Below, in pieces: positions 4,651-35,357 of a DNA stretch of 64,000 bases (position 1 is its first letter; each line of letters starts with the position of its first letter). The stretch lies in UHGV virus genome UHGV-1451962. One strand, written 5' to 3'. Source of the DNA: a virus. Below the pieces are notes generated by a model. The model ran no database searches. It saw only the letters and a list, made by a program, of their open reading frames with translations, and was not told the DNA's origin. The position numbers and the translations under genes are program-made.

Positions 4651-5199
4651 ATGTCTAAAGTTACTTTTAGTAAAATAAATATGAAAATGAAGATGAAAGA
4701 TGAATATGCGACTATTTATCTTAATCCAGAACTTGATGAGGAATTTAAAGTAGAAGTGCGTCAATATTTACCAATTGAGCAAAAGGCAGCTTTAATTACT
4801 TTTATTGCAGAAAACGCGATTGATGAAAAGACTGGTTGCTTTAGTGAAATTAGAATTGAGACTTATTTTGCTCTTGCTATTGCTAAGTATTATGCAGGAA
4901 TTGCTTTTACTGACAAGCAAATTGAAAATGCTGCTAAAATTTATGATGTATTAGAGAGTAATGGAGTTTTTACTAGAATTATGAGTGCTATTCCTGAATC
5001 TGAGTTTAACTTTTTAACTAATGCCGTTAGTAAAACTATTGCCGATATTGCAAGATTTAATAATTCTTTTGCCGGAATGTTGAATATGATCTCTGATAAT
5101 GCGGGCGGCATGGATGAACAGTTTACTGAAATTTTAGAGAAGATTAAGAATGGTGAAGGTTTAGAGACTCTTTCTGAAATTAAGAATATTGTTGGCTAA
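4651..5199 (+). CDS. putative tail assembly chaperone
   Basis: 182-aa acidic protein immediately upstream of the tape-measure-like gene; assignment is by synteny only. Confidence 0.3.
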   Translation: MSKVTFSKINMKMKMKDEYATIYLNPELDEEFKVEVRQYLPIEQKAALITFIAENAIDEKTGCFSEIRIETYFALAIAKYYAGIAFTDKQIENAAKIYDVLESNGVFTRIMSAIPESEFNFLTNAVSKTIADIARFNNSFAGMLNMISDNAGGMDEQFTEILEKIKNGEGLETLSEIKNIVG

Positions 5200-11300: not shown

Positions 11301-13932
11301 AGTAGTAAGAAAATATAATGCTTTAGGTTCTAAGACCGCGCAGGAATCTTTTAAAGATACTCTTGATGCTGCAAAGAAAACACTTGATTTAAGAAAAGAA
11401 ATTCTAGAGCAGTATGAAAATGATCAAAAGCAAAGAGTTGAACTTTTAGAAAATATTGCTGAAGAGGCTAGAAAGAAATTTAATGAAAAATTAAGTAGTA
11501 TTAATGCTGTTATAGAAGTTAAATTAAAGATTAAAGATTTTAAAGATACTAATAGAGAAATAGGTAAAAATGTTGTTGAAGCTTTTGGCGATGCTGTTAA
11601 TTGGGGCAAAAAACCTGGACAAATTGATTTCTTTGGTATGCAAGATAACTTAGCTAAAGCTAAAGACTTAGAAGAACATATGAATCAAATATTTAATCTT
11701 ATGTCTGAGTCTGAAGATAGTGCTGATTTTGAAAGTGTTATAGATTCTTTAGAAGATTTACATGGTAATATTGCTGATACTGTTTCTGATTTAAAAGATT
11801 GGTTAGAAAATCTTAGAGAGTATTTAACTGATGTTATTGATGCAGCAGCTGACAGATTTGCACAATTTACTGATCAATTAGACCATAATGGTACTGTATT
11901 AGATTCAGTAAAAGAATTATTAGATTTACAAGGAATAACTTATAAAACTGGTAAGAATTTTGAACTTTTACAGAAAACTATTCAAGGAAGATTGGAAACA
12001 GCTACTTCTACTGCCAAATTACAAAAGCAATGGATGGAAAAAGCTGCGGAACAATTAGCGGAAGCAGAAAAAGCTTTGGCAGGAGTTACTGAAGAAGATG
12101 CAGCTTATGATACTCTTAAAAATAATCGTGATGCTTTATTAAAACAATTTAATGAATCTCAAGAAGCTATGTTAGATGCAGCTAAAGAAGCTATGGAAAC
12201 GGCAAGAGAGTATTATACTAATGCTATTGAGAAAGCTGCTTATGATTTTGAGCAAGCTATTAGTGGCGGAATGGGTTTAGAATTATTGCAGCAAAAATAT
12301 GATAATTTAATTAGTAAAGAAGAAAGATATTTAGATAAAGTTAATGAAACATATGAAGTAAGTAAATGGAATAGACAACTTCAAAAAGCAATAGATGAAG
12401 AAACTAATGAAGCTTCTAAGAATAGATTAAAAACATTACAAAAAGAAATTGAAGTAAGACGTGAAGGTAATAAATTATCTAAATATGATTTGGATATTTT
12501 AGAAGCAAAATATCAAATGACTCTTGCTCAAAATGCTTTGGATGAAGCTCAAAATGCTAAAAATTCAGTGCGGTTAGTCCGCAATGAATCCGGCAACTGG
12601 GATTATCAATTTACAGCTGATCAGTCTAAAATTGATGAAGCTACACAAAAGTATGAAGATGCGGCAAATAACTATTACAATATAGCAAAAGACCAAGTTA
12701 AAAATATGATGGATGAAATTCTGCGATTAAAACAAGATACTTTAGACCAAATTAAAGATGTTTATGAAGATGAAAGTTTAACTGAGGAAGAACGTGGAGA
12801 AAAGATTGCAGAAATTCGTAGAAATGCAAATGATAAAATCCTTTATATTCAGCAAGAATATCAAGTATCTTTAGAAGATATGACAGATGCAGGTGGAGAG
12901 ATAATTACAGAATATGGAAATACTTATAATGATGTAATGAAAATTATGGAAATGGGTACTTCTGACTTTACTGCATATTTTGAAACTGCTCTTGATGAAA
13001 TGGAAAATGCTGCTGATAATTACAATAGCACTATGGAAGAAGTCACTGGGACTACTGGTTCAAATGTAGATGCTTTAAAACAAATTATTGATGATACTAC
13101 CAAATCTACTCAAGATTTAACTACTGCGGGTACTCAAGCCGCAGATGCTGTTTGGAAGAAAATTGAAGAAGTTCGCCAAGCTTCAGAGCAATGGTCTAAT
13201 TATGCAGCGTGTGTACGTCAAGCATTAGATACTTTGTATGAAATGTCTAACTTTGTAACTACTAGAACAGTTGCCGCTTCTGTTGGTGATATGAAAGGGT
13301 ATAATTCTAATATTGACTATTCTTCTGTTATGAATGATTATTTAAGCCAAGGTGGACAAGTTGGAGATGAAATATTTAAGAGTTTAGAATATCAAAGATA
13401 TTTGAAAATTCTTGGAGAAAATTTTGAACAAGGTAAACAGTATATTTATTCTAATGAAGATTATTATAATAAGCAAAATGATCCAGAGTTTCAGAAATGG
13501 CTAAAAGATAATGGCGGAACTGGCAAATATGAGGATTTTGTTAAGAGTCATACAATAGGTTACGCAACAGGAGGCTATACTGGTTCTTTTGATAATGAAG
13601 ATGGTAAATTAGCATTTTTACATGAGAAAGAATTAGTTTTAAATCAAGAGGATACTGAAAATATTCTTTCTGCGGTTTCCGCGGTTAGAACATTAGGGCC
13701 TAATTTGTTTAAACAAATAGAAAGAATTTTGGATAATAATATAATGGCAGGGCAAAATTTATTAAATGCTCGTATGGCTAGTTCTACTACTGTTTCTAGT
13801 GATGGGCAAATAGTTGAACAGATAGTGCATATTCAAGCTGATTTCCCTGGTGTATCCAGTGCAGCAGAAATCGAAGCAGCTCTTAATAATATTGTTAATG
13901 ATGCGGCTCAATATGCTAGTATTAGAAAATAA
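5317..13932 (+). CDS. tail tape measure protein (giant, 2871 aa)
   Basis: Very long ORF with strong RBS; long coiled-coil-like Ala/Gln/Lys/Glu-rich stretches, internal hydrophobic membrane-like segments, and a Gly-Lys low-complexity repeat; lies between the chaperone-like ORF and the large tail or baseplate genes. Confidence 0.55.
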   Translation: MAKRLNYEVGFTGDTSQLKASLNDAVKALQKLGTSSTTQMTQGMREASKSALELANNLKTATNQETGKLDLVTFNRNLANSKMTISDYAKQLSQLGPTGQQAFMKVAQAVTSAELPMRRTNKVLDELWTTMKNTARWQLTSSALHGFMGALNTCVGYSKALDKSLNSIRIVTEQSAEQMADFAVQANSAAKNLSTTTTDYTDAALIYYQQGLNDKEVLDRTDITIKMANAANESAQVVSDQLTAVWNNFYDGSQSLEHYADAMVALGAATASSSDEIAGGLEKFASIADMIGLSFDYAASALATITATTRQSEDVVGTALKTIFARIQGLNLGETLEDGTDLNKYSEALSKVGVSIKDSNGDLRNMDAILDDIGAKWGTLTKDQQVALAQTVAGVRQYNQLVSLMDNWDFFEDNLKIAQNSEGELNKQADIYAESWEAARKRVKAAAEDIYDSILNPESIVAIDDVLTPFLSGIAQVVNALGGLKGIALVVGSVLTSVYSGKLVNGLQNFATNIQIMTGLQGKLTRSLQEQTVTEAENLDIIIGGNRALETEISLMREKVQLQGMINKYTKNYDQSQMLQVNQRVGVIDALRQQIMASAQKQTALLGEAEEFKTTILLDIEPKPGWEERFRQKILQFNTNMVNGPLKNLNSVFLFDEKDDITRTTEKVTASMQKLASQASSIEAVRRAYSNLNIDQKESAVVLQELIQKTGLWKAEMQNWSTPKLQEFLNNLGTQSIEASKGMQLLKQALMELSYSPEAIDQFINSIRRLAAEEHSAAEYTRLINEEIKKFTNSLQTGSIQSESGWAKTVVSMSNHLMNFGMTLSAVSNMGKVFKESMEGNITAGEAFIQIMTNLGMILMSGSSLFMALSKSMGALVSVYTGVNTSVAALTFVTKLNTAAEEGNIAAKIANVAITKLLTVSEGSLAAAMGITIGVLALFAAGIVFAVKIIDGLIVTQKEASQAIADATQNYTDQKSKLDELNSSLEQTRQKIEELESKDSLSLVEQDELANLKQQEASLERQADLRERIVKAKQAEMAYAIADNFDKKYDKTYKVEPKGRTGADTSNFKTQEDLDKWYNSLNSDQQAKALDQYQNWTQQIAEATAQMTSEVGEDLAELEQDYANYLGAVDSGAIVADPSKIADMQDKLAELRKLIYPTDNQYYEMVIRPVLDDESFDEVRDKIFRALSSGDIKGAGLALTDEMRSAIEAAGISVDDLFNQIAERMSQARETIKSEMGGTEEQLNKLTAEDWDIILTLDLENIGSFRELMKAIENAKNTDLKVKVDTSELDAAKDKIESLNTNEEPLEKALMSYKEQGYLTMDQTYELIKANEEYAQYIKKVGDEYVLTTQSLTDFTEMEKAEKLALDQAIEAMQNKGKVDRDYAQQYVDLYSSLIESSKNWSDQERADSGENFDKNTEALRRQAQAFQEGKISASEYFDAINQRVSETGDNFAKLSDGIDGLKESDYAKTMISSTTALADGFKDLISEVEAGGTNMQEYYAGAVKGTKALMNITAKSNKYITKTADGYKVVTDNIDDATKATQDYKDAQKKVQNLNTWEKQVDQAEGFKKAIDDITSYYDYLKNYLNDNNWLELPDNFDTTTTKFKNMCDTMAADIWSLKDTNAEAFSAIMAHMETENAGFDSSLITSQSQLASAMQGNATIASSAINGLAAQSQISIGTLCQIGGQLLQSLASAISSFSYTIQATGVVDNPGGIGLGGGLVDKIGALLTTGGKIPFEWDMPSAHIDLTGSGSGGSPMFSTTGSARAQKVNGSGKSNYIRSKDTGAASKGESSGLLENISKFGTALEEYGKQSVLSQGLKAFAPSGGGTGGRTLNPSGISTDNNRPSGGGGGKGKGGKGKGGGGKGKGGKGKGGGGGSGSDDSPEIEDEEIFDDRYHDINNRLEEQSQLLDKIDTAKDRAFGVKKLEKYKEKIEAINKEQELYKEKLKKTEEYLKEDLTDLQKNFSGVKLNIDSDSKALLNYEDLEKWAIEEYNKVVRKYNALGSKTAQESFKDTLDAAKKTLDLRKEILEQYENDQKQRVELLENIAEEARKKFNEKLSSINAVIEVKLKIKDFKDTNREIGKNVVEAFGDAVNWGKKPGQIDFFGMQDNLAKAKDLEEHMNQIFNLMSESEDSADFESVIDSLEDLHGNIADTVSDLKDWLENLREYLTDVIDAAADRFAQFTDQLDHNGTVLDSVKELLDLQGITYKTGKNFELLQKTIQGRLETATSTAKLQKQWMEKAAEQLAEAEKALAGVTEEDAAYDTLKNNRDALLKQFNESQEAMLDAAKEAMETAREYYTNAIEKAAYDFEQAISGGMGLELLQQKYDNLISKEERYLDKVNETYEVSKWNRQLQKAIDEETNEASKNRLKTLQKEIEVRREGNKLSKYDLDILEAKYQMTLAQNALDEAQNAKNSVRLVRNESGNWDYQFTADQSKIDEATQKYEDAANNYYNIAKDQVKNMMDEILRLKQDTLDQIKDVYEDESLTEEERGEKIAEIRRNANDKILYIQQEYQVSLEDMTDAGGEIITEYGNTYNDVMKIMEMGTSDFTAYFETALDEMENAADNYNSTMEEVTGTTGSNVDALKQIIDDTTKSTQDLTTAGTQAADAVWKKIEEVRQASEQWSNYAACVRQALDTLYEMSNFVTTRTVAASVGDMKGYNSNIDYSSVMNDYLSQGGQVGDEIFKSLEYQRYLKILGENFEQGKQYIYSNEDYYNKQNDPEFQKWLKDNGGTGKYEDFVKSHTIGYATGGYTGSFDNEDGKLAFLHEKELVLNQEDTENILSAVSAVRTLGPNLFKQIERILDNNIMAGQNLLNARMASSTTVSSDGQIVEQIVHIQADFPGVSSAAEIEAALNNIVNDAAQYASIRK
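10858..10950 (+). repeat. Gly-Lys low-complexity coding repeat inside the tape-measure gene
   Basis: Encodes GGGGGKGKGGKGKGGGGKGKGGKGKGGGGGSGS; DNA shows near-tandem copies of aaaggaaaaggcggaggtggt. Confidence 0.7.
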
Positions 13933-13986: not shown

Positions 13987-16900
13987 ATGAATAATATATC
14001 AGAGCAAATTCTTCAAGCAGCTGATATTTTAGCGCAAAAAAGATTATCCGAATTAAAATATGATATAACAGTTCAAGGCACTGTTGAGTCTTTAGTTAAT
14101 TTAAATACTGGTGAATATAAAGTTAAATATAATGGTAATATATTTTCTGCTTTTAGTAATGATTTAAAAACTACTTATAGAATTGGAGATAATATTTATA
14201 TAAAAATTCCAGAAGGAGATTTTTCTAATAAAAAATTAATTGAAAATAAAGTTACTGATAAGTCTTTAACTGAAAATAATTTAAATGAGCTAGAAAATTC
14301 TGTTTCTCCTGTTGGGCCTACTTTTGATGTTTTTTATAATTATGACAAAATAAAAGAATATGGGGTAGTTGCAGGAGCACCCAAAGATGATAAATTGTCT
14401 ATTACAGAGATTTTCAACAGAGAAACTGTAAGTAATTTTTCCGATATTCCTTTTTTACAATATGCTAATAAATATGAATATATTAAAATTCAGGCCGATT
14501 TTTTAACACTCTTTAGTGATATTCATTCTGAGGGAAATTATGGCTTAGAATTGGCATTTTCATCTAATGGAGAAGATGTTTTTTATAGACTTGATGTTTC
14601 AAATTTTAATGGTAGTCCTTATTCTTTTAATACTTATAGCACGCAATCAGTTACTGTAAAAATACAAACAAAATTTTTAACTGGTTTAAAAAGTATTAAG
14701 TTATTTGAAGAAGGATTTCAATACGATAAATATTTATCTAATGGTGAATATATTTATTTAGATAAAGCAACAGGCAAAGAATTAATACATGATAATGAAA
14801 CCAATGAATATTATTATTTAAATGATAATAATGAAAAAATAATTGTAAATCAAGAGAATAGAATAGAAAAAATAAATGATAAATCACCGAATATTTTTGT
14901 TAAAAATATTCAAGTACAGTATGTAGAAGTAAAAAATTTAATAGACAATCTATATTATTTAAGAATTAAAACACCTAATGGTCAAATGTTTACAGACCAA
15001 ATAGATGAAATTACTTTACAAGGACAATTAATTTACAATGGCAATTCAGTTTTAACAGAAAAGAATAGTACCTGTTATTGGTATGAAAGAGATTATTCTG
15101 TGATGATAGGTGATGAGGCCTATGATAAAAATGTTGGTTTTGGATGGCGACCAATTTCCGCAAATTTTGATACTCTTGTTTTAAAAGATGAAGATGTGGT
15201 ATATAAAAAAGTATTAAAATTAATGGTAGTTTATTCTGATAATGTTGTAATGTCTGAAGAGATAGTTATTAGTAATTATAATACTGATTATAATTGTTGG
15301 CTAGAGCAATTAACTGTTGGAGATACTATTGATTTACATATTAAAAATAATAGAGATGAAGATGAATTAGTCGGTGATTGGTATTTATCTTTACCTGATG
15401 GAAGTTATCAAGAGGTACCTAATGGTAAACAAAAATCTGAAATAGAAGTTAAGCAATATCTTTTATATTCTGCTGTAACTTTTTATTGTAGTATTTATGA
15501 TAAAGATAGAAAAAATATTATTGCCACTGAAGAATATACAATCACTAATACTGAATCACAAGAAGATTTAAGTATAAAGTATATTGGAGAAGATTCTTTT
15601 AGATATGATTCTAATGGTGATATTACTATTGAGGATTCTGAAAAAGAACGTACTATTGAATGTCAATTTGCCTGGAAAGATGGAGTCGGCACTTCTTATG
15701 ATATGACATGGTATAGTCCAGATGGGAGTTTATTAACAACAGGTGAAAGAGTTAATCCTGTTGATTCAATGATAGAAAATCTCTGGGTTGACAAATATAA
15801 TATTTTGCATTATACTATTAAACAGAAGTATAAAATAAATTTTAACAATAATACTATTCAAATTAAAGTTACTACTTTAGACCAAAAGGAATATATTTTT
15901 AATAAAGAAATTCTTTTTGTTAAAGATGGTGATCAAGGTACTAATGGTACTACTTATATCGCAGCTATTCGTCCTTGTGATGATAATGGTATTAAATTAA
16001 GTGGTTTACAGCCTTTGGTTTTTAATCCTTTAACCAAAGAGCTTTTAGATGAACAAGAAAGGATTAGAAATGATAATACTCTTTCTAATGAAGAAAAAAT
16101 AAAACAAATTTTAGAAGTTAGAAAAAGAGGATGGAATACTTTAAAGTTAAGAGTGTATGTTTATAAAGATGGAGAATTAATCAATAATTTAAATGGTAAT
16201 AAATATACTATTAAATATGAATGGTCTGGGACAAATATAAAATTACCTGAAGCAGAAACTGATGATGAATATATTAGCATTTCCGGCAATAGTGATCCAG
16301 TTATAAACTTTTATTCTACTTCTGATAAATATGAATTTTATATAAAAATTAAAATAACTGTTAGAGAAAAAGCAGGAGATTCTACTGTTTATCTTTATTC
16401 TATTTATCCTATTGATGTTGCAGTTAATGGTTTTGAATATAATAGAGTTGACATAAATGAAATTCCTTCTTATATTAAATATAATTCTTCTGGTTTAAAT
16501 CCTTCTTTTTATAGTAATGCTTTAAAATATACTTTTGATGAAATAGATCAAACTAAATTAGTAGAATCATTAAATAAAGATATTTTAGTAATTGAAGATA
16601 AACAACAAAAGGAATCTGAAATTATAGATAGATATTTAGTACCTTCTTCTAATTTTATTTTTGAAAGAGATTCAGATAAAAATAATAGTAGTATTGGTAT
16701 TTTAAAATGCCCCGACCCGCAATATAATACTAGATATTTATTACACTCTATTGTTATGTATCTTGATACATATGGCAATGAAGCTATTAATGGCTGGGAT
16801 GGAACACAGTTAGATATAGATAACAAAGGCCAATATGTTTTTGCCCCGCAGGTTGGTGCAGGTACTAAAAATGAACAAAATCAATTTACCGGCGTTGTTA

Positions 16901-18306
16901 TGGGTAAAGATAGCGGGCAGAAAAAAATTGGTTTATATGGTTATCAAAATGGTATTACTACTTTTGGTTTAATGCAAGATGGTTCTGCATTTTTTGGTGC
17001 TTCTACTAGCGGAAGAATTAATATTGATGGAACAAAAGCAAATATTTATGGCGGTTTAACAGAAAATGGCGCAAATAGTATGAAATTAACTTTATCTGAT
17101 ATGCGGATGACTGGTAGTACAAAAGCTATTAATATTAATGATTCAAAAGGTGAATCTGCTTTTTATGTAACTTATAATGGTTATATGTATGCTAATAATG
17201 TTAAAATAAAAGGTAATGTTGAAGCAACCACTTTAACAGCAACTAAAAGCGGCAAGATAGCTGATTTTACTATTGATTCAACTGGATTAAGAGGAGGTTC
17301 AATTACTTGTAGAAATTTAGTTGCTAACACTGATGGAGAAATTGCTGGTTGGAAAATTACTGGGCAAAGTTTAAAAAGTCCTAACGCTTCAGTAAATCAG
17401 CCTTCTGAGGCGGGAGGAGTGCCAACTTGGACAGGCACTACTTTAAATAGTAGTGGACAAATTTATACTCAGAAATTATATGCAAGTGGTGGAGATATTG
17501 GTGGCTGGCAGATTAATTCTACTAATTTATACGGAAGTGCTGAAGGAAAATTTCAAAGTATTACTTATGATGATGAAGGTAATATGAGTGTATCTGAAAT
17601 AACAGGTATTAAATTTACTGAATTACAAAAAGGCGGCCAGATTAAAACCAATACAGTACAAATTTTTAGTGATCCACAAGCTGAAGGACAAATAGGGAAT
17701 TATATTGGATATATGGGTCTTGTCTACGGAAGCACTACCAGTAAAGATACTACATATAACATAGGTATATATAGTCTTACTGGTGCTCGTCTTGAAGCTA
17801 AAGGAGATATAGCAATAGCCGCAGGAAAAGGTAGTATTTGGATGCATGGTAATATAATGGCGAGAAAAGGTTTTTATTGTGGAAATAGTTCTAATATTGA
17901 TAATTTAGATAAAAAATTTCTTGTTGAAAATAGAATTATTAGACTGGGTGCAGAGACAGATGCTGACCAATTGTATATTAGAAGTTCTTGGTTAGTTTTA
18001 AAAGATGATGGAATGTCTATTAAAAAGCCTACAACAATTACAAAAGATGTAACAATTTCTGCTAATCAAAAATTAAGTTTGTCTGGAAATGGTTATATTT
18101 CAACTCCAACTATACAGACTGATAAAATTCAACCAGTGGGTAAAGAGACTGGTACAATAACAGTGAGTGGAACTATGAGCGGTAGTTTTAAGGGTAGTCT
18201 TTCTACATCAAGTGGTTATTATTATAATAGTAGTGGAGCTTACACAAAACTTTTAGCAGGTAGTATAATAGATGATAGTATTAAAGTTTTTGCTAAATTT
18301 TCGTGA
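13987..18306 (+). CDS. large tail or baseplate structural protein (1439 aa)
   Basis: Long ORF with RBS (aaaggag) directly downstream of the tape-measure gene; Gly/Thr/Ser-rich beta-like C-terminal region typical of tail tip or fibre proteins. Confidence 0.45.
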   Translation: MNNISEQILQAADILAQKRLSELKYDITVQGTVESLVNLNTGEYKVKYNGNIFSAFSNDLKTTYRIGDNIYIKIPEGDFSNKKLIENKVTDKSLTENNLNELENSVSPVGPTFDVFYNYDKIKEYGVVAGAPKDDKLSITEIFNRETVSNFSDIPFLQYANKYEYIKIQADFLTLFSDIHSEGNYGLELAFSSNGEDVFYRLDVSNFNGSPYSFNTYSTQSVTVKIQTKFLTGLKSIKLFEEGFQYDKYLSNGEYIYLDKATGKELIHDNETNEYYYLNDNNEKIIVNQENRIEKINDKSPNIFVKNIQVQYVEVKNLIDNLYYLRIKTPNGQMFTDQIDEITLQGQLIYNGNSVLTEKNSTCYWYERDYSVMIGDEAYDKNVGFGWRPISANFDTLVLKDEDVVYKKVLKLMVVYSDNVVMSEEIVISNYNTDYNCWLEQLTVGDTIDLHIKNNRDEDELVGDWYLSLPDGSYQEVPNGKQKSEIEVKQYLLYSAVTFYCSIYDKDRKNIIATEEYTITNTESQEDLSIKYIGEDSFRYDSNGDITIEDSEKERTIECQFAWKDGVGTSYDMTWYSPDGSLLTTGERVNPVDSMIENLWVDKYNILHYTIKQKYKINFNNNTIQIKVTTLDQKEYIFNKEILFVKDGDQGTNGTTYIAAIRPCDDNGIKLSGLQPLVFNPLTKELLDEQERIRNDNTLSNEEKIKQILEVRKRGWNTLKLRVYVYKDGELINNLNGNKYTIKYEWSGTNIKLPEAETDDEYISISGNSDPVINFYSTSDKYEFYIKIKITVREKAGDSTVYLYSIYPIDVAVNGFEYNRVDINEIPSYIKYNSSGLNPSFYSNALKYTFDEIDQTKLVESLNKDILVIEDKQQKESEIIDRYLVPSSNFIFERDSDKNNSSIGILKCPDPQYNTRYLLHSIVMYLDTYGNEAINGWDGTQLDIDNKGQYVFAPQVGAGTKNEQNQFTGVVMGKDSGQKKIGLYGYQNGITTFGLMQDGSAFFGASTSGRINIDGTKANIYGGLTENGANSMKLTLSDMRMTGSTKAININDSKGESAFYVTYNGYMYANNVKIKGNVEATTLTATKSGKIADFTIDSTGLRGGSITCRNLVANTDGEIAGWKITGQSLKSPNASVNQPSEAGGVPTWTGTTLNSSGQIYTQKLYASGGDIGGWQINSTNLYGSAEGKFQSITYDDEGNMSVSEITGIKFTELQKGGQIKTNTVQIFSDPQAEGQIGNYIGYMGLVYGSTTSKDTTYNIGIYSLTGARLEAKGDIAIAAGKGSIWMHGNIMARKGFYCGNSSNIDNLDKKFLVENRIIRLGAETDADQLYIRSSWLVLKDDGMSIKKPTTITKDVTISANQKLSLSGNGYISTPTIQTDKIQPVGKETGTITVSGTMSGSFKGSLSTSSGYYYNSSGAYTKLLAGSIIDDSIKVFAKFS

Positions 18307-21520: not shown

Positions 21521-23416
21521 ATGTTTGAATATCTTAAAGACTATGATTTTTTAAACAAGTTAGATAAATTGCGAGTTCGCGTTCAATATGCGAAACTTAT
21601 TCTTCTTTCTTTTGATGAAAAACCTATTAAAGAAATTCAAGGTAATATTACTGCCGGTTCATTGTCAATTAATGGTTCTTCCGCAATTAGAAGAACTATT
21701 AGCTTAACTATGTTAGCTAATTTAAATAATAATGATTTAACAAATTTAGATAATGATATTTCTTTAAATAAAAAAATTAAAATTTTAATTGGATATAATA
21801 ATCCTTTAAGAGAATATCAAAAATATGGAGAAATTATTTGGTTTCCTTGCGGGGTTTTTTTGGTTTCTACTGCTAGTATTACTAGAGCAACTGGTGGTTG
21901 GACTATCAGTATTTCTGGTAAAGATAAAATGGTAATGTTAGATGGCAGTGTAGGTGGAATGCTACCTGCTTCTGTTACTTTCCATGAATCATATGTGTAT
22001 AATAAGGATAAAACAGAAGCAGTAGTTAATTATCCTACTATTTACCAAATTATTCAAGAAACAGTTAATCATTGGGGAGAAGAGCCAATAAATAATATTT
22101 TTATTACAGATTTAGAGGAAACCGCAAAACTTTTAGTAAAATATATTGGAGAGCAACCTATATATCTAAGTAATAATTATTCTAGTTTAAGTTATACTCC
22201 TGGAGATACTTATCCTTATATGTTTATAAATGGGCAAGATATTGGATATAAAGAAACAGATTTTACTTATCCTGGAGAATTGATTTTAAAAGCTGGCGAT
22301 AGTGTAGTTACTTTATTAAATAAGATTTGCGATACTTTAGGTAATTTTGAATTTTTTTATGATATAGATGGACGTTTTATTTTTCAAGAAAAGAAAAATT
22401 ATTTAAATACTGGAAGTCCGCTATTAGATTTAAATATTGAAGATTATGTACAGAATTATTCAAATACAAAATATGCTTATAGTTTAACTGATTTAGATAA
22501 TATTACTTCTCTTGCTATTGCTCCAAAATATGATGAAATTAAAAATGATTTTATTGTATGGGGAAAAAGAAAAACAACAGATGGTGCAGAAATAGATATT
22601 CGTTATCATTTAGCTATTGATGCTAAACCAATTCTTAATTATTGTTTACAATATATGTGGGCTATTTATGAAAATGAAGTTTTATTAAGATACGAATTTA
22701 CTTATATAAATAATCCTCCTGTTAATGGTAAATTAATAGCTAGTCCTTGTAAAGAATGGCGAGAAGAATTATATAGACAAGCTTTAATTGCTTCCTTAAA
22801 TAATTTAACAAATAGTAATTATGATATGGAACTATTAGCTGAATGGCGTAATTTATATGACCCTGAAAATGCAGATTGGAAAGTAACAGATAATTGGAAT
22901 CCAAAAGTTTATTCTGACCCTAGAAATTTAAATTATTGGCTAGATTTTATAGATACTGGTACAGCAATTGGTAAATACTCAGTCAATATGATTGGACGTC
23001 GCACAAAAGTTATTAATAGTTCTGAAGTAACTTGTATATATAATACAGAAGTTCCTGATGTTATTTTTATGACCCAAGAACAATGGGAAAATGTAGAAAA
23101 AAGAAAATATTATGATTCTATTGGTCAAAAATATTTTAGAATTACTGATAATTATAAATCTATTTTTGCTAGTAGTTCTACTGGTTCTAGTGCTTTTGAT
23201 CAAATTCGAGAATTATTATATCAAAATTTAAGTTATAATACTCAAGTCACTATACAAGGAGTACCCAAGTATTATTTAGAACCAAATAATATTATTTATA
23301 TAGAAGATATGGAAAGTAATATTATAGGAAATTATGCGATTTCTCAAATTACTTTACCTTTAACTTATTCAGGCACAATGTCAATTACAGCTACAGAAGT
23401 GCTAACTAGAGTATAA
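21521..23416 (+). CDS. tail or baseplate structural protein (631 aa)
   Basis: ORF with strong RBS (agaggagg); co-oriented within the tail block. Confidence 0.4.
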   Translation: MFEYLKDYDFLNKLDKLRVRVQYAKLILLSFDEKPIKEIQGNITAGSLSINGSSAIRRTISLTMLANLNNNDLTNLDNDISLNKKIKILIGYNNPLREYQKYGEIIWFPCGVFLVSTASITRATGGWTISISGKDKMVMLDGSVGGMLPASVTFHESYVYNKDKTEAVVNYPTIYQIIQETVNHWGEEPINNIFITDLEETAKLLVKYIGEQPIYLSNNYSSLSYTPGDTYPYMFINGQDIGYKETDFTYPGELILKAGDSVVTLLNKICDTLGNFEFFYDIDGRFIFQEKKNYLNTGSPLLDLNIEDYVQNYSNTKYAYSLTDLDNITSLAIAPKYDEIKNDFIVWGKRKTTDGAEIDIRYHLAIDAKPILNYCLQYMWAIYENEVLLRYEFTYINNPPVNGKLIASPCKEWREELYRQALIASLNNLTNSNYDMELLAEWRNLYDPENADWKVTDNWNPKVYSDPRNLNYWLDFIDTGTAIGKYSVNMIGRRTKVINSSEVTCIYNTEVPDVIFMTQEQWENVEKRKYYDSIGQKYFRITDNYKSIFASSSTGSSAFDQIRELLYQNLSYNTQVTIQGVPKYYLEPNNIIYIEDMESNIIGNYAISQITLPLTYSGTMSITATEVLTRV

Positions 23417-26263: not shown

Positions 26264-26297
26264 AAGGGGAAGATTTTATTCTTCCCCTTATGTTTTA
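26264..26297 (+). terminator. rho-independent terminator (weak T-run)
   Basis: Stem aaggggaaga / tcttcccctt with 6-nt loop followed by atgtttt. Confidence 0.4.
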
Positions 26298-26313
26298 TAT
26301 AAGGAGGAAAATT

Positions 26314-26916
26314 ATGGCTTTATTTAAAGTTTTTTATGGAACAGAAGCTGAGATGAATCAAGTCGCAGTAAAAGAGTCTTATGCTTATATCCTAGAAGAG
26401 AATGATTGTATGTATGTCGATTTTAATAATGCTAGACATAAATTAAATGCGGGATATGCAGAAAAACTTCGGAAATTTAATGCGGCTGGAGCAGTTGAAA
26501 TAGAAATTGATCCAGAAGAATTGGTTTTAAATTCTGATATTATTGATATAGAACATGGTGGCACTGGTGGCAAAACTGCGGCTGAAGCAAGAACTAATTT
26601 AGATGTTTATAGTAAAACAGAAGTAAGCGATAATATTAAAACTGCTACTGATAAGGTCACTTCTAAGGCTTATCCTGCTACATTGTCCGTAGGAGCTTGG
26701 ACATTAGATGGAGAAGTTTATAAAATGTCTTATTTAATTGAAACTTTGAAGTGTGGTGCTGATGGTACGGTTCCGCCAATTATTACTTACACCAACAATT
26801 TAGAAGAATATTCTAAAATTGAAAAGGCTACTGCTACTCCTGGTTTTGGAGTTACTTTCGAGATAAAAGAAAAACCTACTGATAGTATAGGTATTATTAT
26901 TGTAGATAATTGTTAA
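26314..26916 (+). CDS. tail fibre protein (N-terminal GGTG-type motif)
   Basis: Contains DIEHGGTGGKTAAEARTNLDVY, which matches the conserved N-terminal tail-fibre motif; start placed at the ATG 7 nt after aaggagg rather than the track start at 26290. Confidence 0.5.
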   Translation: MALFKVFYGTEAEMNQVAVKESYAYILEENDCMYVDFNNARHKLNAGYAEKLRKFNAAGAVEIEIDPEELVLNSDIIDIEHGGTGGKTAAEARTNLDVYSKTEVSDNIKTATDKVTSKAYPATLSVGAWTLDGEVYKMSYLIETLKCGADGTVPPIITYTNNLEEYSKIEKATATPGFGVTFEIKEKPTDSIGIIIVDNC

Positions 26917-26929
26917 TAAAAATAAAATG

Positions 26930-26962
26930 GGTAAGAGCTAAATGCTCTTACCCATTTTTTTG
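26930..26962. terminator. bidirectional rho-independent terminator at strand switch
   Basis: Stem gggtaagagc / gctcttaccc with 5-nt loop; T-run on plus strand and U-rich flank on the minus strand; lies between convergent genes. Confidence 0.6.
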
Positions 26963-26964
26963 TT

Positions 26965-27402
26965 TTATATAATATGATAATAAGGTTTTTCTTCATCAAA
27001 GATTTTCCATCTAAGAAAATCATCTAAAATAATTCCTATTAGACCTAGAATAAACCAAAGACAACTAAAAGATAAACATATTTGTCCTTTATAATTAAAA
27101 GGTAAATGTGAATAATCCCAAATATTAAGTTGTAATTGAATGTTTAAAATATATCCAAATAAAAATTCTAAACTTGTTATAATTGCGGTTCCAATTAATC
27201 CTTGAGCCAATAAAGACCAATTCCAAGGAATATTTTCATTTAAGCTACCTAAAATTAAAAAAGATAAACCGCCTAAGATAAACATTGACCAATGAGTATT
27301 TCCTGAATGTATATATGTTTTGTAAACAAATTCAATTAACCAGTAAATACTTCCGCCAATCAAAAATAATATAGAATTTCTAAAAAAAGAATTAATTTTC
27401 AT
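26965..27402 (-). CDS. integral membrane protein (function unknown)
   Basis: 145-aa ORF with several hydrophobic helix-length segments; overlaps the upstream minus-strand ORF by 11 nt. Confidence 0.4.
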   Translation of the reverse strand: MKINSFFRNSILFLIGGSIYWLIEFVYKTYIHSGNTHWSMFILGGLSFLILGSLNENIPWNWSLLAQGLIGTAIITSLEFLFGYILNIQLQLNIWDYSHLPFNYKGQICLSFSCLWFILGLIGIILDDFLRWKIFDEEKPYYHII

Positions 27403-28051
27403 ATTTTAATTCTATGGCTTTAATTTCCTTATAATTTTTAGCAGTATAAATTTGTGTTTTATATTGTTGCATTTTTTTATAATAAGGATAAACAAAATCA
27501 GAAATAGCTAAAGCTAAAGCAGTCAAATTTTCAACTGTCCAAGATGTACATTCTTCTTGGCGAGCATGCCATTCTAATCTAGGATTCTCTGCTCCAGCCT
27601 GAACTGCCATAGAATATTGATTCATATTTAGGCTAATTTCTGATTGATCTTCTTCTGTAACTCCATATTGCTTTCCATCAATCCAAGTCAAAGGATTATT
27701 AATGAGGAAATTAGCGAAAGCTTTTTTATTTTCTTCTTGTTTCATTTTTTGATATTCTTCTAAAGAATAGTAATATGTTAATTCATTTTTTTCATTATCA
27801 TATTTATAAAAATTAGGTTCATAATCTTCTGGAATATTACCATCAAAAGATAAGATTCTTACTGCATCAATAGAACCTGTCATATCTGAATTAGCCAAAA
27901 TGAAATGGCTATTGCAATCTGAGCCTATTACTCCTGTAGCTTCACCTTCCGAGCAAGCAATGACAATACTTGGGTTGGATTGTAATTTGATGTAGCGGAT
28001 TTCCGCAAGGATATCGACTACTATATTTTCTCTATTGATTAATAAATACAT
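27392..28051 (-). CDS. hypothetical protein, translationally coupled to the DGR reverse transcriptase
   Basis: 219-aa ORF whose start overlaps the RT stop by 1 nt; no recognisable motif. Confidence 0.4.
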   Translation of the reverse strand: MYLLINRENIVVDILAEIRYIKLQSNPSIVIACSEGEATGVIGSDCNSHFILANSDMTGSIDAVRILSFDGNIPEDYEPNFYKYDNEKNELTYYYSLEEYQKMKQEENKKAFANFLINNPLTWIDGKQYGVTEEDQSEISLNMNQYSMAVQAGAENPRLEWHARQEECTSWTVENLTALALAISDFVYPYYKKMQQYKTQIYTAKNYKEIKAIELKYEN

Positions 28052-29307
28052 TATAATATTTCAACTCCTTTAAATAATGAATGGAAATAATTATCAAGAT
28101 TTTGTATAATATAAAAAGTAGTACCTTTATTTATATGTTCTCTAAAACCTCGATATGATTCTTGAATTTCTATATCAGTTATTTTACCTTGTAGCCAAAG
28201 TTGGTGCATTTTTCTCATTTTTCTATATTGTCGCTTTATTTTCTTTTTAAATGGAGTTTGAATAATTTTATTCGTATTAGTTAAATAAAAATCCCATTTT
28301 AAATATTTAAATGGATTATGTTTATCCGAACGTCTTTTATGAGGATAATTATTTTTATCTAGTTTTATTGGACTAATTTTAATTATTTTAGTTTTTCTTT
28401 TGTTACATTTTAAATGTATTTTATTTAATTCATTTTCAATTTTATTAAGACATTCTTTTAAATAATCTTTGTCATTATGCAAAATATAAATATCGTCCAT
28501 ATAACGTCCATAATATTTTAAATGCAAATGCTCTTTTGCATAATGGTCAATTCCATTTAATGCCAATAAAGCTAATAATTGAGATGCTTGACTACCTAAA
28601 CCTAAACTTTTATGATTAAATTCATAATAAGTACAATTTTTATAAAATTGTTTAGGATAAATTATCTTATATTTTTGTTTTTTGATGATATAGTATTGTT
28701 TATTAGGAATAGGAACTGTATCTTTTGTGACTGAAAAACAAAAGGTATCAATAATATAATCAATTAATTTAAATACTCGTTTTTCTTTAATATAATGTTT
28801 TGCCATTTGCTTTAAAGAATTATGGTCTATTGAATCAAAAAATTTTTGAATATCAATTCTTAAACCATAAAAAGATTTTCCTAAACCATATGTTCTGTGC
28901 GCTGCTTGTAAATGTTTACGCACTTCTAGCAAAGCAAAATCAATTCCTTTTCCTTTTAATGTAGCACAATTATCATAAATAAATTTTGGAGTTAGTTCTG
29001 GAATAAGAACTTGCGAACATAATGTATTTTGTGCCAATCTGTCATAAATATGGCACGCTCTTATATCTCTGGGTTTGCCCCGCTCAATTATACTAAAACT
29101 GTTAAAAACTAATTGTTCATAACTGTCATTTTCTAATTGTTCTTTAAGCGTTAAGATGTTATTTAATCTATTTTCTTCAAAATTAACTGTACTATCTTTC
29201 CATCTTACGTTTCGGCAAATAGAATAAGAAGAATCATAAAAAGCGTCAAAATTACAAAAACGCTGGAAAAGATTTTCTTCTATAAAAAATTCTCCTTTTT
29301 TTATCAT
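28051..29307 (-). CDS. DGR-type reverse transcriptase
   Basis: 418 aa; RT motif 2 (GLRIDIQKFFDSIDH), DGR-type motif 4 (GLGSQASQ = GxxxSQ), catalytic YMDD (YGRYMDDIYIL); lies directly downstream of the TR in the canonical target-avd-TR-RT order. Confidence 0.85.
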   Translation of the reverse strand: MIKKGEFFIEENLFQRFCNFDAFYDSSYSICRNVRWKDSTVNFEENRLNNILTLKEQLENDSYEQLVFNSFSIIERGKPRDIRACHIYDRLAQNTLCSQVLIPELTPKFIYDNCATLKGKGIDFALLEVRKHLQAAHRTYGLGKSFYGLRIDIQKFFDSIDHNSLKQMAKHYIKEKRVFKLIDYIIDTFCFSVTKDTVPIPNKQYYIIKKQKYKIIYPKQFYKNCTYYEFNHKSLGLGSQASQLLALLALNGIDHYAKEHLHLKYYGRYMDDIYILHNDKDYLKECLNKIENELNKIHLKCNKRKTKIIKISPIKLDKNNYPHKRRSDKHNPFKYLKWDFYLTNTNKIIQTPFKKKIKRQYRKMRKMHQLWLQGKITDIEIQESYRGFREHINKGTTFYIIQNLDNYFHSLFKGVEIL

Positions 29308-29588
29308 GCGGTGCTAGATTGTGTGCTCTGACACGCACATCCGCAATCTTAATTAATTATCTGTATAGATAAAAGGTTAAATTCTCCTTAAATGAAAGCT
29401 ATCTATTATAATCTAAGTCTTTTATTTAATATTTCCTCTCCTTCTTGGTTTTAAAACCAATGCGTCCAGAAAATACCAAAATAGATGAGTTATAACATAG
29501 GTTATAATTTTCTGGGGTAACACTTAGTCGTCTCAGTCGATGTCGCCTGCGGCTCCATCACCAGAGACAGTTAGAGTTCTCATCTAAT

Positions 29589-29693
29589 CGGGCGCGAGGT
29601 AATTGTTGTTGTTGTAGTTGGTATTGTTCGCATTACCATCAGAGTTGACATTGCACACATTGTTCGTGTTGTTCGAGTTGTAGTAGCGAGACC
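29589..29693 (-). repeat. DGR template repeat (TR)
   Basis: About 105 nt, 84/105 identical to the VR; 20 of 21 differences lie at plus-strand T (adenine on the transcribed minus strand); non-coding, between the Avd-like ORF and the RT. Confidence 0.85.
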
Positions 29694-29726
29694 CGCGATA
29701 TTTTAGAATTTAACCAAATAAAAAAA

Positions 29727-30191
29727 TTATTTGTATCGCTGAGAATAAATTAGATTATCTCTATTTATTCTATCAAGAAGATTTTGTTTTAATTTGTAAG
29801 TAAGTTTAGCAACATATTTGAAAGATTTATTTTTCTTTTTATTATTTAACCCATATTCATAAATACATAAATCTAATTGCCTTAAAATTGAATCACAATA
29901 TCTTATTGATTTATTAAAGTAATCTGCTCTTTCAACTAAAGTTTTTTTATTTTTTAGATTGATTAAACTAGCAGAGAAAGCATATCCATGTGCGTTTTTG
30001 GCACATTTTAAAATATCTGCACCAAAAGCTGAATAATAGTATGGATTACCAAGAATACCTGGTTTAATATGAGAACCATCATCTAATTCTTGATATGGAC
30101 GAACTAAAATTAATACTTGATGGACTAACTTTCTTGCATCATTTAAATAATCATTTTTAGATTGATGCCTATCTTTTTTTCTTACTGACAA
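29727..30191 (-). CDS. avd: Avd-like accessory variability determinant (putative)
   Basis: 154-aa basic (Lys/Arg-rich) ORF with TTG start after aaaggagg, placed between VR and TR as Avd is in known DGRs; assignment by position and composition only. Confidence 0.5.
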   Translation of the reverse strand: MSVRKKDRHQSKNDYLNDARKLVHQVLILVRPYQELDDGSHIKPGILGNPYYYSAFGADILKCAKNAHGYAFSASLINLKNKKTLVERADYFNKSIRYCDSILRQLDLCIYEYGLNNKKKNKSFKYVAKLTYKLKQNLLDRINRDNLIYSQRYK

Positions 30192-30225
30192 ATTAAAAAC
30201 CTCCTTTAAATAACGTACAAGAAAT

Positions 30226-30254
30226 ATTATACCAGAAAATTTTTAAAAAGTCAA
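30226..30254 (-). promoter_or_regulatory. sigma70-like promoter for the avd-TR-RT transcript
   Basis: On minus strand: TTGACT, 17-nt spacer, TATAAT (exact consensus -10), preceded by an A/T-rich UP-like tract; about 35 nt upstream of the avd TTG start. Confidence 0.5.
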
Positions 30255-30315
30255 AGAAAAAAAATTTTTAGAAAAAATTTTTTTCCCAGAAAAGGTGAAA
30301 GCATTTTTATACTAT

Positions 30316-30341
30316 GGCATTGGCCCTTTTGGGCCAATGCC
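30316..30341 (-). promoter_or_regulatory. GC-rich hairpin 3' of the VR (candidate DGR target-recognition hairpin)
   Basis: Perfect 11-bp inverted repeat ggcattggccc / gggccaatgcc with 4-nt loop, about 30 nt downstream of the target-gene stop; no U-run on the minus strand, so it is not a canonical terminator. Confidence 0.5.
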
Positions 30342-30369
30342 AATATAACCTTACTGTATAACTTTACAG

Positions 30370-32154
30370 TTATCCAATAACGAAAGCGGGCGCGAGGTAA
30401 CGGTAGTTGGCGTAGTAGGTAAAGTCCGCACCACCATCAGAGTCGACACGGCACACATAGCCCGTGTAGTCCGAGTAGTAGTTGCGAGACCGCTCCCAAT
30501 ACCATTTGGAATCTCCTGAACTGTTACCATTAGCATCTTGAATGTTTTTTATACGGGAGCTGTCACTTGTGTAATAATCATAAGCAGCATTATATCCTTT
30601 AGTACATTCTGCATTGGAAACAGTAGAATTAGCAGTGCTGATTGGAGAATAACTATCTAATCCCATTTCTCTCTCAGAAGGAATCCAAACAGTTTCGTTA
30701 TTATAACTAACATTAGCACTTCTATTATCATCCCAATTATCGCAAGTACCTTTAGATACTGTTTTTATAGATGCTTTAGCAGCACAAGCATTATAAAAAT
30801 TTTGACAATAACTTCTAGCATTAGAACCAATCCATTGTGCGCTATTATCACCAAAAGTAGTCATATTCGGCAAGAGATAAACACTATGAAAAGCTAAAGT
30901 TTTATCTCCATCTTTGTCATAGCCAATACAACGCATTGTAACAGCATTTGCTCCTAAAACATTAGTAGATAAATTCATCTTTTTAGTTTTACCAACTAAA
31001 GCTTGACGTTCTGAAGCAGAAGAATTGTTAAGCCAAGACTTTAAGCCAGCCCACCAAGAAGCATCTCCCGCAGCACTCTCATTTCCCCAAGTCCAATATG
31101 TAGCAGTAGCAGTAATTTTTTTATTCGCGGGAGTTGTATAATTGGTACTGGCTGCTATTGATACAGTAATAGTAGCAGTTCCCGCGGTTGTACCATTGCC
31201 TTTAATGGTAATTGTTTTACCGCTTACTGTTGCTGAAGCCACATTAGAATTAGTAGAAGTTACAGAAATTGTACCAGTAGAATTAGTGGTCACAGTAACT
31301 TTTACACCAGTAGAATAATTAGATGCGTCAATAGAAACAGTAGAAGTGCTTAGACTTAATGTTCCTGTTGCTTTTTGAATAGACCAATCAACATTTTTCG
31401 CGGTTGTTGTCTTATCAGGCCATCTGTAATTATTTTTAGGAGTAAAAGTAGCTGTATATTTTCCTGCATTAATTCCCGATGTAGTTCCTCCAATAGTCAT
31501 GTAACTTGTATTATAATTTGACCAATTTGGACTTTGCGAATTGGCGTTATAAGTTAAAGTTCCAGTTTGAGAAGGAATAGGAACTGTTTTTCTTTCTACT
31601 GTTACAGAAAAAGTAGTAGTTTTAGTAATACTATTTTCTGTATAAGAAACAGTAATTGTTTGAGTACCAACTGTATTTAAAACAGAAGGTGAAGTTGTCC
31701 AACCAGAAACAGTAGCGGTTTTACCATCAGAATAAGTGGCAGTAACAGACATTCCGGCAGATTCAAATGTCTCGCCATATTCATAAATTGTCTTAGTTGG
31801 TTTTGTGCTTGTGATGCTGGTTAGTGCATGGATAACAGTAACTGCTTGCTCGGCGGTACAAGTAACTCCTCCTTCAGAGTAAGTAATAGTAACTTTAGTT
31901 ACTCCATCAGTTAAAGGAGAAGGTGTTACAGTATATCCAGTTACCGCAGTAGAAGAAACAACAATATTATCAATGGCATAATTGGCAGTTATAACCATTC
32001 CTGTTGTTTCAAATTCTTGTCCAGCAACGTAAGATGTACGGTTTGGTGGAGTAGTAACTTCAATAGAGTGGAGTGCTATTGAGCTTCCGCCACCTTTTCC
32101 GCCTTGTTCAGTTAAAATGCATTTAACAGGCAAGGTATAAGACCTCCTTATCAA
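30370..32154 (-). CDS. DGR target protein: Ig-like repeat protein with C-terminal lectin-fold-like variable domain
   Basis: 594-aa ORF; tandem Thr/Ser-rich Ig-like segments (e.g. GVTKVTITYSEGGVTCTAEQAVTVIH), then a C-terminal domain containing WIPSEREMGL and the VR; likely true start is the TTG at 32133 (9 nt after aaggagg) rather than 32154. Confidence 0.8.
   Translation of the reverse strand: MIRRSYTLPVKCILTEQGGKGGGSSIALHSIEVTTPPNRTSYVAGQEFETTGMVITANYAIDNIVVSSTAVTGYTVTPSPLTDGVTKVTITYSEGGVTCTAEQAVTVIHALTSITSTKPTKTIYEYGETFESAGMSVTATYSDGKTATVSGWTTSPSVLNTVGTQTITVSYTENSITKTTTFSVTVERKTVPIPSQTGTLTYNANSQSPNWSNYNTSYMTIGGTTSGINAGKYTATFTPKNNYRWPDKTTTAKNVDWSIQKATGTLSLSTSTVSIDASNYSTGVKVTVTTNSTGTISVTSTNSNVASATVSGKTITIKGNGTTAGTATITVSIAASTNYTTPANKKITATATYWTWGNESAAGDASWWAGLKSWLNNSSASERQALVGKTKKMNLSTNVLGANAVTMRCIGYDKDGDKTLAFHSVYLLPNMTTFGDNSAQWIGSNARSYCQNFYNACAAKASIKTVSKGTCDNWDDNRSANVSYNNETVWIPSEREMGLDSYSPISTANSTVSNAECTKGYNAAYDYYTSDSSRIKNIQDANGNSSGDSKWYWERSRNYYSDYTGYVCRVDSDGGADFTYYANYRYLAPAFVIG
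30387..30491 (-). repeat. DGR variable repeat (VR) at the 3' end of the target gene
   Basis: Matches the TR with substitutions almost exclusively at TR adenine positions; encodes the C-terminal ~35 residues (…YYSDYTGYVCRVDSDGGADFTYYANYRYLA…); shared GC-rich 3' boundary cgggcgcgagg. Confidence 0.85.
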
Positions 32155-34730: not shown

Positions 34731-35357
34731 GTGAAAAAGGTGTTATATGGTTATGCAAGAGTTTCTTCCCGCGACCAAAATATAGATAGACAAATAATTG
34801 CATTAAAAGAGGTCGGCGTAGAAGAAGAAAATATCTTCATAGATAAACAATCAGGTAAAGATTTTAATAGACCTTCTTATCAAGAATTATTAGAAACAAT
34901 TAAAACAGGAGATATGGTAATTATAAAATCCATAGATAGATTAGGTCGAAATTATTCAGAAATTTTAGAACAGTGGAGAATTATTACTAAAGTTCTGAAT
35001 GTAGATATTAAAGTTATTGATATGCCGTTACTCGATACCTCCTACGGGGATGGTACATTAAATAACTTTATAGCTGATTTAGTTTTACAAATTCTCTCTT
35101 TTCAGGCAGAACAAGAGAGAATTTGTATTAAACAGCGACAAGCAGAAGGAATAGCTGCTGCAAAACAAAAAGGAGTTAAATTTGGCCGACCCCGCAAACA
35201 GCTTCCTTCTAATTTTGAAGATTTATATTATAGATATTTAAATAATGAACCAGTGGATAGATTATCAAAAGATTGTAAAGGATTATCTAAATCTACTTTG
35301 CGGTTGCGACTACAAGAACGTCATTCTAAAGATAAAGCATTGGGTGTAATTATTTAA
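34731..35357 (+). CDS. small serine recombinase (resolvase/invertase family)
   Basis: 208 aa, GTG start after agaggtg; N-terminal catalytic motif YGYARVSSRDQ, then DRLGRN; C-terminal HTH region with GRPRK. Confidence 0.8.
   Translation: MKKVLYGYARVSSRDQNIDRQIIALKEVGVEEENIFIDKQSGKDFNRPSYQELLETIKTGDMVIIKSIDRLGRNYSEILEQWRIITKVLNVDIKVIDMPLLDTSYGDGTLNNFIADLVLQILSFQAEQERICIKQRQAEGIAAAKQKGVKFGRPRKQLPSNFEDLYYRYLNNEPVDRLSKDCKGLSKSTLRLRLQERHSKDKALGVII

Follow-up and report, generated by a model that had tools for sequence, protein, structure and literature searches.

A diversity-generating retroelement with a lectin-fold target protein in a large uncultured gut phage

The 64,000-nt stretch of virus genome UHGV-1451962 analyzed here (hereafter the window) carries on its minus strand what is, with very little doubt in our assessment, a complete, functional and canonical diversity-generating retroelement (DGR). 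The combination of an invariant template repeat (TR) with a variable repeat (VR) that is hypervariable at adenines is the population signature of mutagenic retrohoming, and the element has evidently been diversifying in nature. The data presented below concern the anatomy of the cassette, its adenine-specific substitution pattern, natural turnover of the VR against a constant TR, two modeled protein folds and covariation in the DGR RNA.

Between 26.9 and 32.2 kb, the minus strand encodes a 594-aa open reading frame (ORF), a 154-aa ORF, an intergenic stretch and a 418-aa ORF, followed by genes of 219 and 145 aa. The canonical DGR parts that an initial annotation of this DNA had described on the minus strand were all found, with the ORFs where it had placed them. 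The cassette consists of the following features:

30370-32154, minus strand: DGR target gene, 594 aa, with N-terminal immunoglobulin (Ig)-like Big_3 repeats and a C-terminal DUF6273 / C-type-lectin-fold domain
30373-31074, minus strand: C-terminal ligand-binding domain of the target, residues 361-594 (DUF6273, modeled C-type lectin fold)
30387-30491, minus strand: VR, 105 nt, the final 35 target codons (from TR comparison and diversity among relatives)
30387-30397, minus strand: G+C-rich 3' end of the VR, CCTCGCGCCCG, resembling an initiation of mutagenic homing (IMH) element (sequence; putative role by analogy with Bordetella phage BPP-1)
30316-30341, minus strand: candidate DGR target hairpin/cruciform, a perfect 11-bp inverted repeat with a 4-nt loop (sequence)
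30226-30254, minus strand: putative sigma-70-type promoter, TTGACT-17-TATAAT with a TG extension, 5' of the accessory ORF (consensus match)
29727-30191, minus strand: accessory protein gene, 154 aa, isoelectric point (pI) 9.8, Avd-like by fold (ORF and fold model)
29589-29693, minus strand: TR, non-coding (repeat comparison; identical in seven close relatives)
29308-29588, minus strand: spacer between the TR and the reverse transcriptase (RT) gene, 281 nt, structured part of the DGR RNA (conservation and covariation)
29579-29586, minus strand: TR 3' flank, TTAGATGAG, proposed template strand of the template:primer duplex (8-bp helix with 29482-29489)
29482-29489, minus strand: spacer segment, CTCATCTA, proposed primer strand (partner of the TR 3' flank)
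28051-29307, minus strand: DGR RT gene, 418 aa from a conserved ATG (RVT_1, phrog_1423 and 8ub7_A matches)

The repeat pair and its natural variation

The largest direct repeat between 27 and 34 kb pairs 29586-29693 with 30384-30491 (108 nt, 80% identity, spacing 798). An ungapped tally over this repeat gave 22 mismatches, 21 of them at TR adenines and one a T-to-A change (hypergeometric P = 4e-11). The TR and VR limits proposed in the initial annotation proved correct, and within these 105 nt its adenine bias is borne out, with 20 of 21 differences at TR adenines. The TR is intergenic, 281 nt 5' of the RT gene, and contains 37 adenines; the VR lies inside the 3' end of the target gene. Read in the target frame, the TR has 35 codons, of which 15 are AAC or AAT, and the mismatches are confined to codon positions 1 or 2. 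The outermost mismatch of the longer repeat (A at 29588 in the TR, C at 30386 in the VR) shows the same A/C pair in all relatives and therefore marks the homology boundary, not a mutagenic event. Beyond the shared CCTCGCGCCCG, the VR runs on as CTTTCGT and the TR as ATTAGATG, and the same G+C-rich end and break point recur in all relatives. Scanning the 64,000-nt window with the TR, with adenines treated as wildcards, revealed no second VR. Short 15-nt stretches that the target gene shares exactly with the RT region (28705/31573 in the window and 4302/7533 in locus L007, encoding the peptides TVPIP and YLASH) were judged to be chance or compositional.

Ten closely related loci (L025-L034) were reached by exact-protein look-up. 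One of them (L025) is essentially the window itself, and the other nine are 94-97.5% identical to it at the nucleotide level over 6.7-7.8 kb. The accessory protein is present unchanged on at least 67 contigs, with sizes up to 140 kb, and a pattern search of IMG/VR for the RT start of the window clade gave 0 matches. In six of the nine close relatives, independent of one another and of metagenomic origin, the TR is the same as in the window, and their VRs are all different, with 14-24 changes each. The initial annotation had named variability of the VR across related loci as a check, and it is plainly there: across the seven VRs with this common TR, substitutions were present at 130 of 259 adenine sites (66 to G, 42 to T and 22 to C), compared to 2 of 476 non-adenine sites. 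Variation occurs at every AAY codon, but no change was seen at any of the six adenines that belong to TAC, ACG and ACC codons, which points to selection on scaffold residues. These VRs contain zero stop codons and differ pairwise at 11-17 of 34 residues. Nucleotide diversity among the close relatives peaks in the VR (pi = 0.22), compared to 0.02 in the TR and 0.01-0.06 elsewhere. A second, lower peak (pi 0.10-0.14) lies at 30560-30770, in the lectin domain upstream of the VR and outside TR homology, and may reflect recombination or selection on neighboring surface loops.

The same pattern was found at greater evolutionary distance, in a sister clade of 24 IMG/VR loci (L001-L024) with RTs about 61% identical and the same layout as the window cassette. 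Their TR/VR mismatches fall nearly all at adenines, and about 14 of the 24 loci have one common TR and VRs that are all different. In two sister loci (L013 and L024; VR about 4848-4980, TR about 5576-5690), TR and VR lengths differ by a few codons, indicating that template-target indels arise in natural DGRs of this family.

The single non-adenine change in the window's VR, T to A at 30483, was found only in the window and L025. We considered whether the window's TR had instead mutated at 29685 (the site is a TAC/AAC mismatch, with AAC in the sister clade) and rejected this; close relatives have TAC in both TR and VR, and the mismatch is therefore a change in the window's VR. This private substitution could be taken as a sign that the window copy is a recently inactivated relic, no longer homing, of a cassette once active in its lineage, as could a hairpin loop unlike the functional consensus and the variation in RT start among relatives (both described below). 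We consider such a relic very improbable, since the ORFs are all intact, the conserved ATG opens the RT frame in the window and YMDD is retained, and the TR is the same as in six relatives whose VRs have clearly turned over; moreover, one non-adenine change in 105 nt is consistent with an infrequent RT error or with one recent mutation. The window's own copy is thus presumably active, as judged from its lineage.

Reverse transcriptase and accessory protein

The RT carries LGSQASQ at residue 237 (the [LIV]GxxxSQ signature, in motif 4) and YMDD at residue 269, in agreement with the GxxxSQ and YMDD motifs read earlier from its translation. It matches Pfam RVT_1 (E = 7e-15) and phrog_1423 (E = 3e-75), and its best match in the PDB is 8ub7_A, the Bordetella DGR RT (E = 4e-13), with the group II RT 6ar1 at 2e-4. 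The best full-length relatives among GenBank phages (27-32% identity) are from phage nd12 (30% identity, E = 8e-41), Roseburia phage Shimadzu and Faecalibacterium phages, and DGRs have been described in nd12 and the Faecalibacterium phages (see PMC11792537, PMC10743442). By its motifs and best relatives, this protein is a DGR-clade RT.

Other retroelements were weighed against the same data. The top-scoring NCBIfam model was the group II intron RT TIGR04416, and PADLOC gave only generic matches to RTs and defense-associated reverse transcriptases (DRTs) with scores of at most 96 bits, a result that might suggest an RT from a group II intron, retron, DRT or abortive infection (Abi) system beside a repeat that is an ordinary duplicated gene fragment. 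However, no group II, retron or DRT model reached its curated cut-off (85.7 bits vs. 300 for TIGR04416, 54.1 vs. 200 for Drt3a and 28.7 vs. 235 for Retron St85), and Rfam detected no group II or retron RNA, either locally at E <= 1 or at gathering score across the whole window. NCBIfam and PADLOC apparently lack a DGR RT model, because none surfaced for an RT whose nearest solved relative is that of the Bordetella DGR. Duplication or gene conversion also does not produce mismatches restricted to adenines or pair an invariant TR with a variable VR, and we regard this explanation as extremely unlikely. Both outcomes that the initial annotation had said would count against a DGR are contradicted: the RT stays below the cut-offs of all group II, retron and DRT models, and populations do show VR variation, only at TR adenines.

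Where translation of the RT begins is less straightforward. Directly behind the conserved ATG, a poly-A tract (29281-29307, minus strand; about 4880-4900 in L025-L034) varies in length among relatives, with 7 adenines in the window, L025 and L029, 5 in L026, L032 and L034, 8 in L027, L028, L031 and L033, and 9 in L030. Only a tract of seven adenines keeps the RT in the reading frame of the conserved ATG (giving 418 aa), and gene callers give RTs of 328, 371 or 418 aa across a 66-member cluster. The 414-codon RT body is open in nine of the ten relatives (our check could not confirm L030). Candidate start signals are also present downstream, consisting of AAGGAG, 8 nt and an in-frame ATA in the window clade and of AAGGAG, 7 nt and TTG in the sister clade. 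It is conceivable that the poly-A tract acts through slipped-strand or transcriptional slippage as an on/off switch for the RT, making the DGR phase-variable, and that the accessory protein also founds a family of Avd analogues invisible to current hidden Markov models (HMMs), but we consider this combined proposal unlikely. Clean adenine-only VRs at loci with five adenines favor a downstream start over a slippage switch, and a true RT start at the near-cognate ATA at 29281-29283 is the more likely of the two.

In the sister clade, the RT genes (about 6001-7188 in L001-L024) contain 9-11 in-frame TAG codons aligned with Gln of the window's RT, and translation table 11 likewise breaks the accessory ORF and some of the target genes. 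Sister-clade phages read TAG as Gln. Under the standard code, the window's cassette and its very long ORFs are uninterrupted, and the window has no tRNA gene.

The accessory protein (154 aa), encoded between the VR and the TR, had been described as an Avd-like basic ORF. Its basic character (pI 9.8) was confirmed, and its AlphaFold model (predicted local distance difference test, pLDDT, of 91.8) is a four-helix bundle with a short beta-hairpin insertion. Avd belongs to the 23S-IVS family, and the modeled fold is closest to Avd/23S-IVS. Weighing against an Avd assignment, neither the single sequence nor a 19-sequence profile gave a meaningful match to Avd, to a PF05635-type family or to any other named protein in Pfam, NCBIfam, PADLOC or the PDB. 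The protein is thus Avd-like by fold only, and the model supports but does not prove the assignment, because four-helix bundles are promiscuous in fold searches.

Non-coding elements and a proposed mechanism

The putative promoter upstream of the accessory ORF is the top promoter match of the region (11 of 12 consensus positions), and its hexamers and their spacing are kept in 10 of 10 close relatives. The hairpin noted earlier 3' of the VR (GGCATTGGCCC-AAAA-GGGCCAATGCC, 30316-30341) has a perfect 11-bp stem and lies 45 nt past the VR; the terminator scan did not call it as a terminator, and no T-run lies behind it. Published DGR hairpins have a G+C-rich stem of 7-10 bp and a 4-nt GRNA loop and lie 4-34 bp after the VR (see PMC3240598). 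A role for the hairpin as a DGR target recognition element is therefore plausible but unproven, because its loop, its 45-nt distance and the hairpin of the sister clade (which is unrelated and A+T-rich) depart from the published pattern. The loop reads AAAA in six lineages and TTTT in four on identical stems (about 3850-3875 in L026-L034), indicating that the palindrome inverts in nature. Both loop states co-occur with diversified VRs, although a comparable loop change in BPP-1 abolished homing (PMC3240598).

The spacer is conserved in blocks between the two clades despite the divergence of their RTs. We propose 32 base pairs in six helices, of which 95.8% are paired across the alignment compared to 32-48% when the partners are slid, and 12 pairs change on both sides. 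This covariation is real but thin, because it comes from only about three independent lineages. Helix 1 joins the TR 3' flank (29579-29586) to 29482-29489 over 8 bp, includes two compensatory pairs (AG/CT for the window clade and GA/TC for its sister) and lies directly 3' of the last templated G. In the Bordetella complex of RT, Avd and RNA, a template:primer duplex in the equivalent position is formed by TR117-129 and Sp47-56, and an Avd-binding stem-loop is placed after this duplex in most DGRs (see 10.1101/2023.10.23.563531). At the corresponding place, directly after helix 1, the window has a stem-loop (GTCTC...GAGAC) whose counterpart in the sister clade reads GTTGC...GCAAC. Rfam gave no family match for the spacer or for any other part of the window.

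RNAalifold proposed a different, long-range helix between the TR flank and 'TTTCATYTAAGG' some 230 alignment columns downstream. We set this helix aside as the primary model for its one-sided changes and retain it as a possible alternative conformation. An invariant spacer block, TTTCAT(T/C)TAAGGAGAA (29257-29270, minus strand; columns 257-270 of alignment A3), can also pair with the TR 3' flank, in an RNAalifold long-range helix whose changes are again one-sided only; the block resembles a Shine-Dalgarno sequence, yet no conserved start codon stands behind it. This pairing suggests that the DGR RNA has two mutually exclusive conformations.

Compared to the mtd-avd-TR-brt cassette of BPP-1, the window's DGR has the same order of parts (target gene with VR, hairpin, accessory gene, TR, spacer, RT), the same adenine-specific substitutions and an RT with the same [LIV]GxxxSQ and YMDD motifs, for which the Bordetella RT is the best solved relative. 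The two systems also share a basic four-helix-bundle accessory protein, a VR at the C-terminus of a C-type lectin fold and, as in the Bordetella RT-Avd ribonucleoprotein, pairing of the TR 3' flank with the spacer. The differences are mostly of size and detail. The window's accessory protein has an N-terminal extension and the beta-hairpin insertion and shows no sequence similarity to the BPP-1 Avd; its RT, at 418 vs. 328 aa, is extended at the C-terminus and has about 60 additional residues inserted between motifs 3 and 4. The spacer of the BPP-1 DGR is about 140 nt, half the 281 nt found here. The BPP-1 hairpin has an 8-bp stem and a GAAA loop 4 nt from the VR, in contrast to the 11-bp stem, AAAA or TTTT loop and 45-nt distance in the window, and the BPP-1 target Mtd is a trimer, unlike the Ig-repeat and DUF6273 protein encoded here.

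By analogy with BPP-1, from which we take cis-priming, the mechanism of integration, what the accessory protein does and host or surface attachment by the diversified protein, the cassette may work as follows. The promoter upstream of the accessory gene would drive one RNA that extends from the accessory ORF through the TR and spacer to the RT gene, and the basic four-helix-bundle protein and the RT would bind the structured spacer. Pairing of the TR 3' flank with the spacer segment about 100 nt downstream would bring the first base to be copied into position, so that cDNA synthesis is self-primed. The RT would then insert any base opposite TR adenines and copy all other positions accurately. 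The resulting cDNA would take the place of the VR in the target gene's 3' end, a step guided by the G+C-rich end common to both repeats and probably also by the downstream hairpin. As an outcome, about 15 AAY codons would vary on the ligand-binding face of the lectin-fold domain, with scaffold residues fixed.

The target protein, its phage and wider significance

The target protein begins with a short N-terminus and several Ig-like repeats (Pfam Big_3, E = 3e-11) and ends in a lectin domain. It matches phrog_37900 (E = 1e-45) and is about 31% identical to DUF6273 proteins of the Faecalibacterium phages Taranis, Pioen and Roos. Its C-terminal 234 residues score above the Pfam DUF6273 cut-off, and their structural model (pLDDT 96.6) identifies the domain as a C-type lectin fold displaying the VR at its C-terminus. 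Such a C-terminal VR on a DUF6273 domain has been reported for DGR targets of Faecalibacterium and other gut phages (see PMC11792537, PMC10743442).

By analogy with known systems, the target would be a tail-fiber or receptor-binding protein that mediates attachment to the host or another surface. The initial annotation had placed the cassette between tail-fiber genes; it does lie at the distal end of a structural/tail module, with PHROG tail matches at 21521-23416 and 26290-26916, but the tail or virion PHROG matches of the genes that flank it are marginal (E about 1e-3), and a sequence search of the PDB with the two large flanking ORFs gave no match. The target might instead be a virion-surface or secreted adhesin (Hoc-like or 'tentaclin'-like, with Ig and lectin domains) that binds mucus, glycans or other environmental ligands. 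The lack of a recognizable tail-attachment domain beside the Ig repeats and lectin domain, the marginal flanking matches and the position of the cassette as a minus-strand island within a plus-strand structural block are in keeping with this idea, and the same alternative has been raised for Ig and DUF6273 DGR targets (see PMC11792537, PMC10743442). Given the location next to the tail genes and the fact that archetypal phage DGR targets are receptor-binding proteins, we hold an adhesin to be a serious but less probable possibility than a receptor-binding role.

The closest annotated relatives of the RT (27-30% identity) and target (about 31%) come from the Faecalibacterium phages and prophages Roos, Pioen, Lelie, Toutatis and Taranis and from Roseburia phage Shimadzu. 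These are likewise gut phages of the Firmicutes type, and so hint at a Firmicutes host for the window phage, with a DUF6273 target and a VR at its C-terminus; however, they are temperate siphoviruses of 45-55 kb, whereas the source of the window is an uncultured gut phage of about 137 kb with a polymerase like YorL of SPbeta. Given the low identities to their DGRs, the window's DGR represents a separate lineage. Phages nd4 and nd12, which contribute one of the best RT matches, have 'tentaclin' targets that also combine DUF6273 (C-type lectin fold) with Ig-like domains, but in these the lectin domain and VR are N-terminal and followed by the Ig domains, with two targets per DGR (PMC10743442). 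The order is reversed in the window's target, which has one C-terminal VR and is the one target in the window.

DGRs of Zeta and Epsilon crAss-like phages have amber-recoded RT genes (PMC12386605), and the sister clade resembles them in its RT TAG codons at Gln, its GxxxSQ motif and its lectin-type target. The window phage differs in that its cassette uses the standard code and in its DnaE-type polymerase, which is 38.8% identical to SPbeta YorL and is accompanied in the window by NrdD, a type II topoisomerase and RecJ; this set indicates that the phage is not crAss-like. Most Zeta crAss DGRs were also reported without an Avd gene (PMC12386605), whereas the window's cassette has an accessory gene.

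Together with two co-oriented genes and a terminator, the cassette forms its minus-strand island at the end of the plus-strand structural block. These neighboring features are:

27392-28051, minus strand: co-oriented DUF4376 gene, 219 aa, overlapping the RT stop codon and adjoining the RT gene in close relatives too
26965-27402, minus strand: gene for a small membrane protein, 145 aa, PF06541-like, the last of the minus-strand unit (ORF and profile match)
26924-26958, no strand assigned: bidirectional terminator-like hairpin closing the minus-strand unit (terminator scan)

Upstream of the tail-like genes lie two giant plus-strand ORFs, at 5317-13932 (2871 aa) and 13987-18306 (1439 aa), the latter with no PHROG match at E <= 1e-5. 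Downstream of the structural block, the translation of a 208-aa ORF at 34731-35357 (MKKVLYGYARVSSRDQ...) resembles a small serine recombinase or resolvase. A megablast search of GenBank phages with the cassette gave no match.

DGRs are common in gut phages, DUF6273 targets in such phages have already been described and the system itself is well known, and this locus leaves the understanding of how DGRs work unchanged. In public records, the RT and accessory protein of this phage are labeled 'hypothetical protein' by NCBI (DAQ93853.1, DAQ93893.1), which suggests that cassettes of this kind escape annotation and Avd HMMs. Our analysis places an active DGR in a large gut phage with an SPbeta-type polymerase. 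It also gives a direct view of which positions of the lectin fold may vary: all 15 AAY codons tolerate change, and the adenines in TAC, ACG and ACC do not. With seven distinct ligand-binding tips produced from one identical template in the phages of different people, the locus is a natural DGR example of textbook quality.

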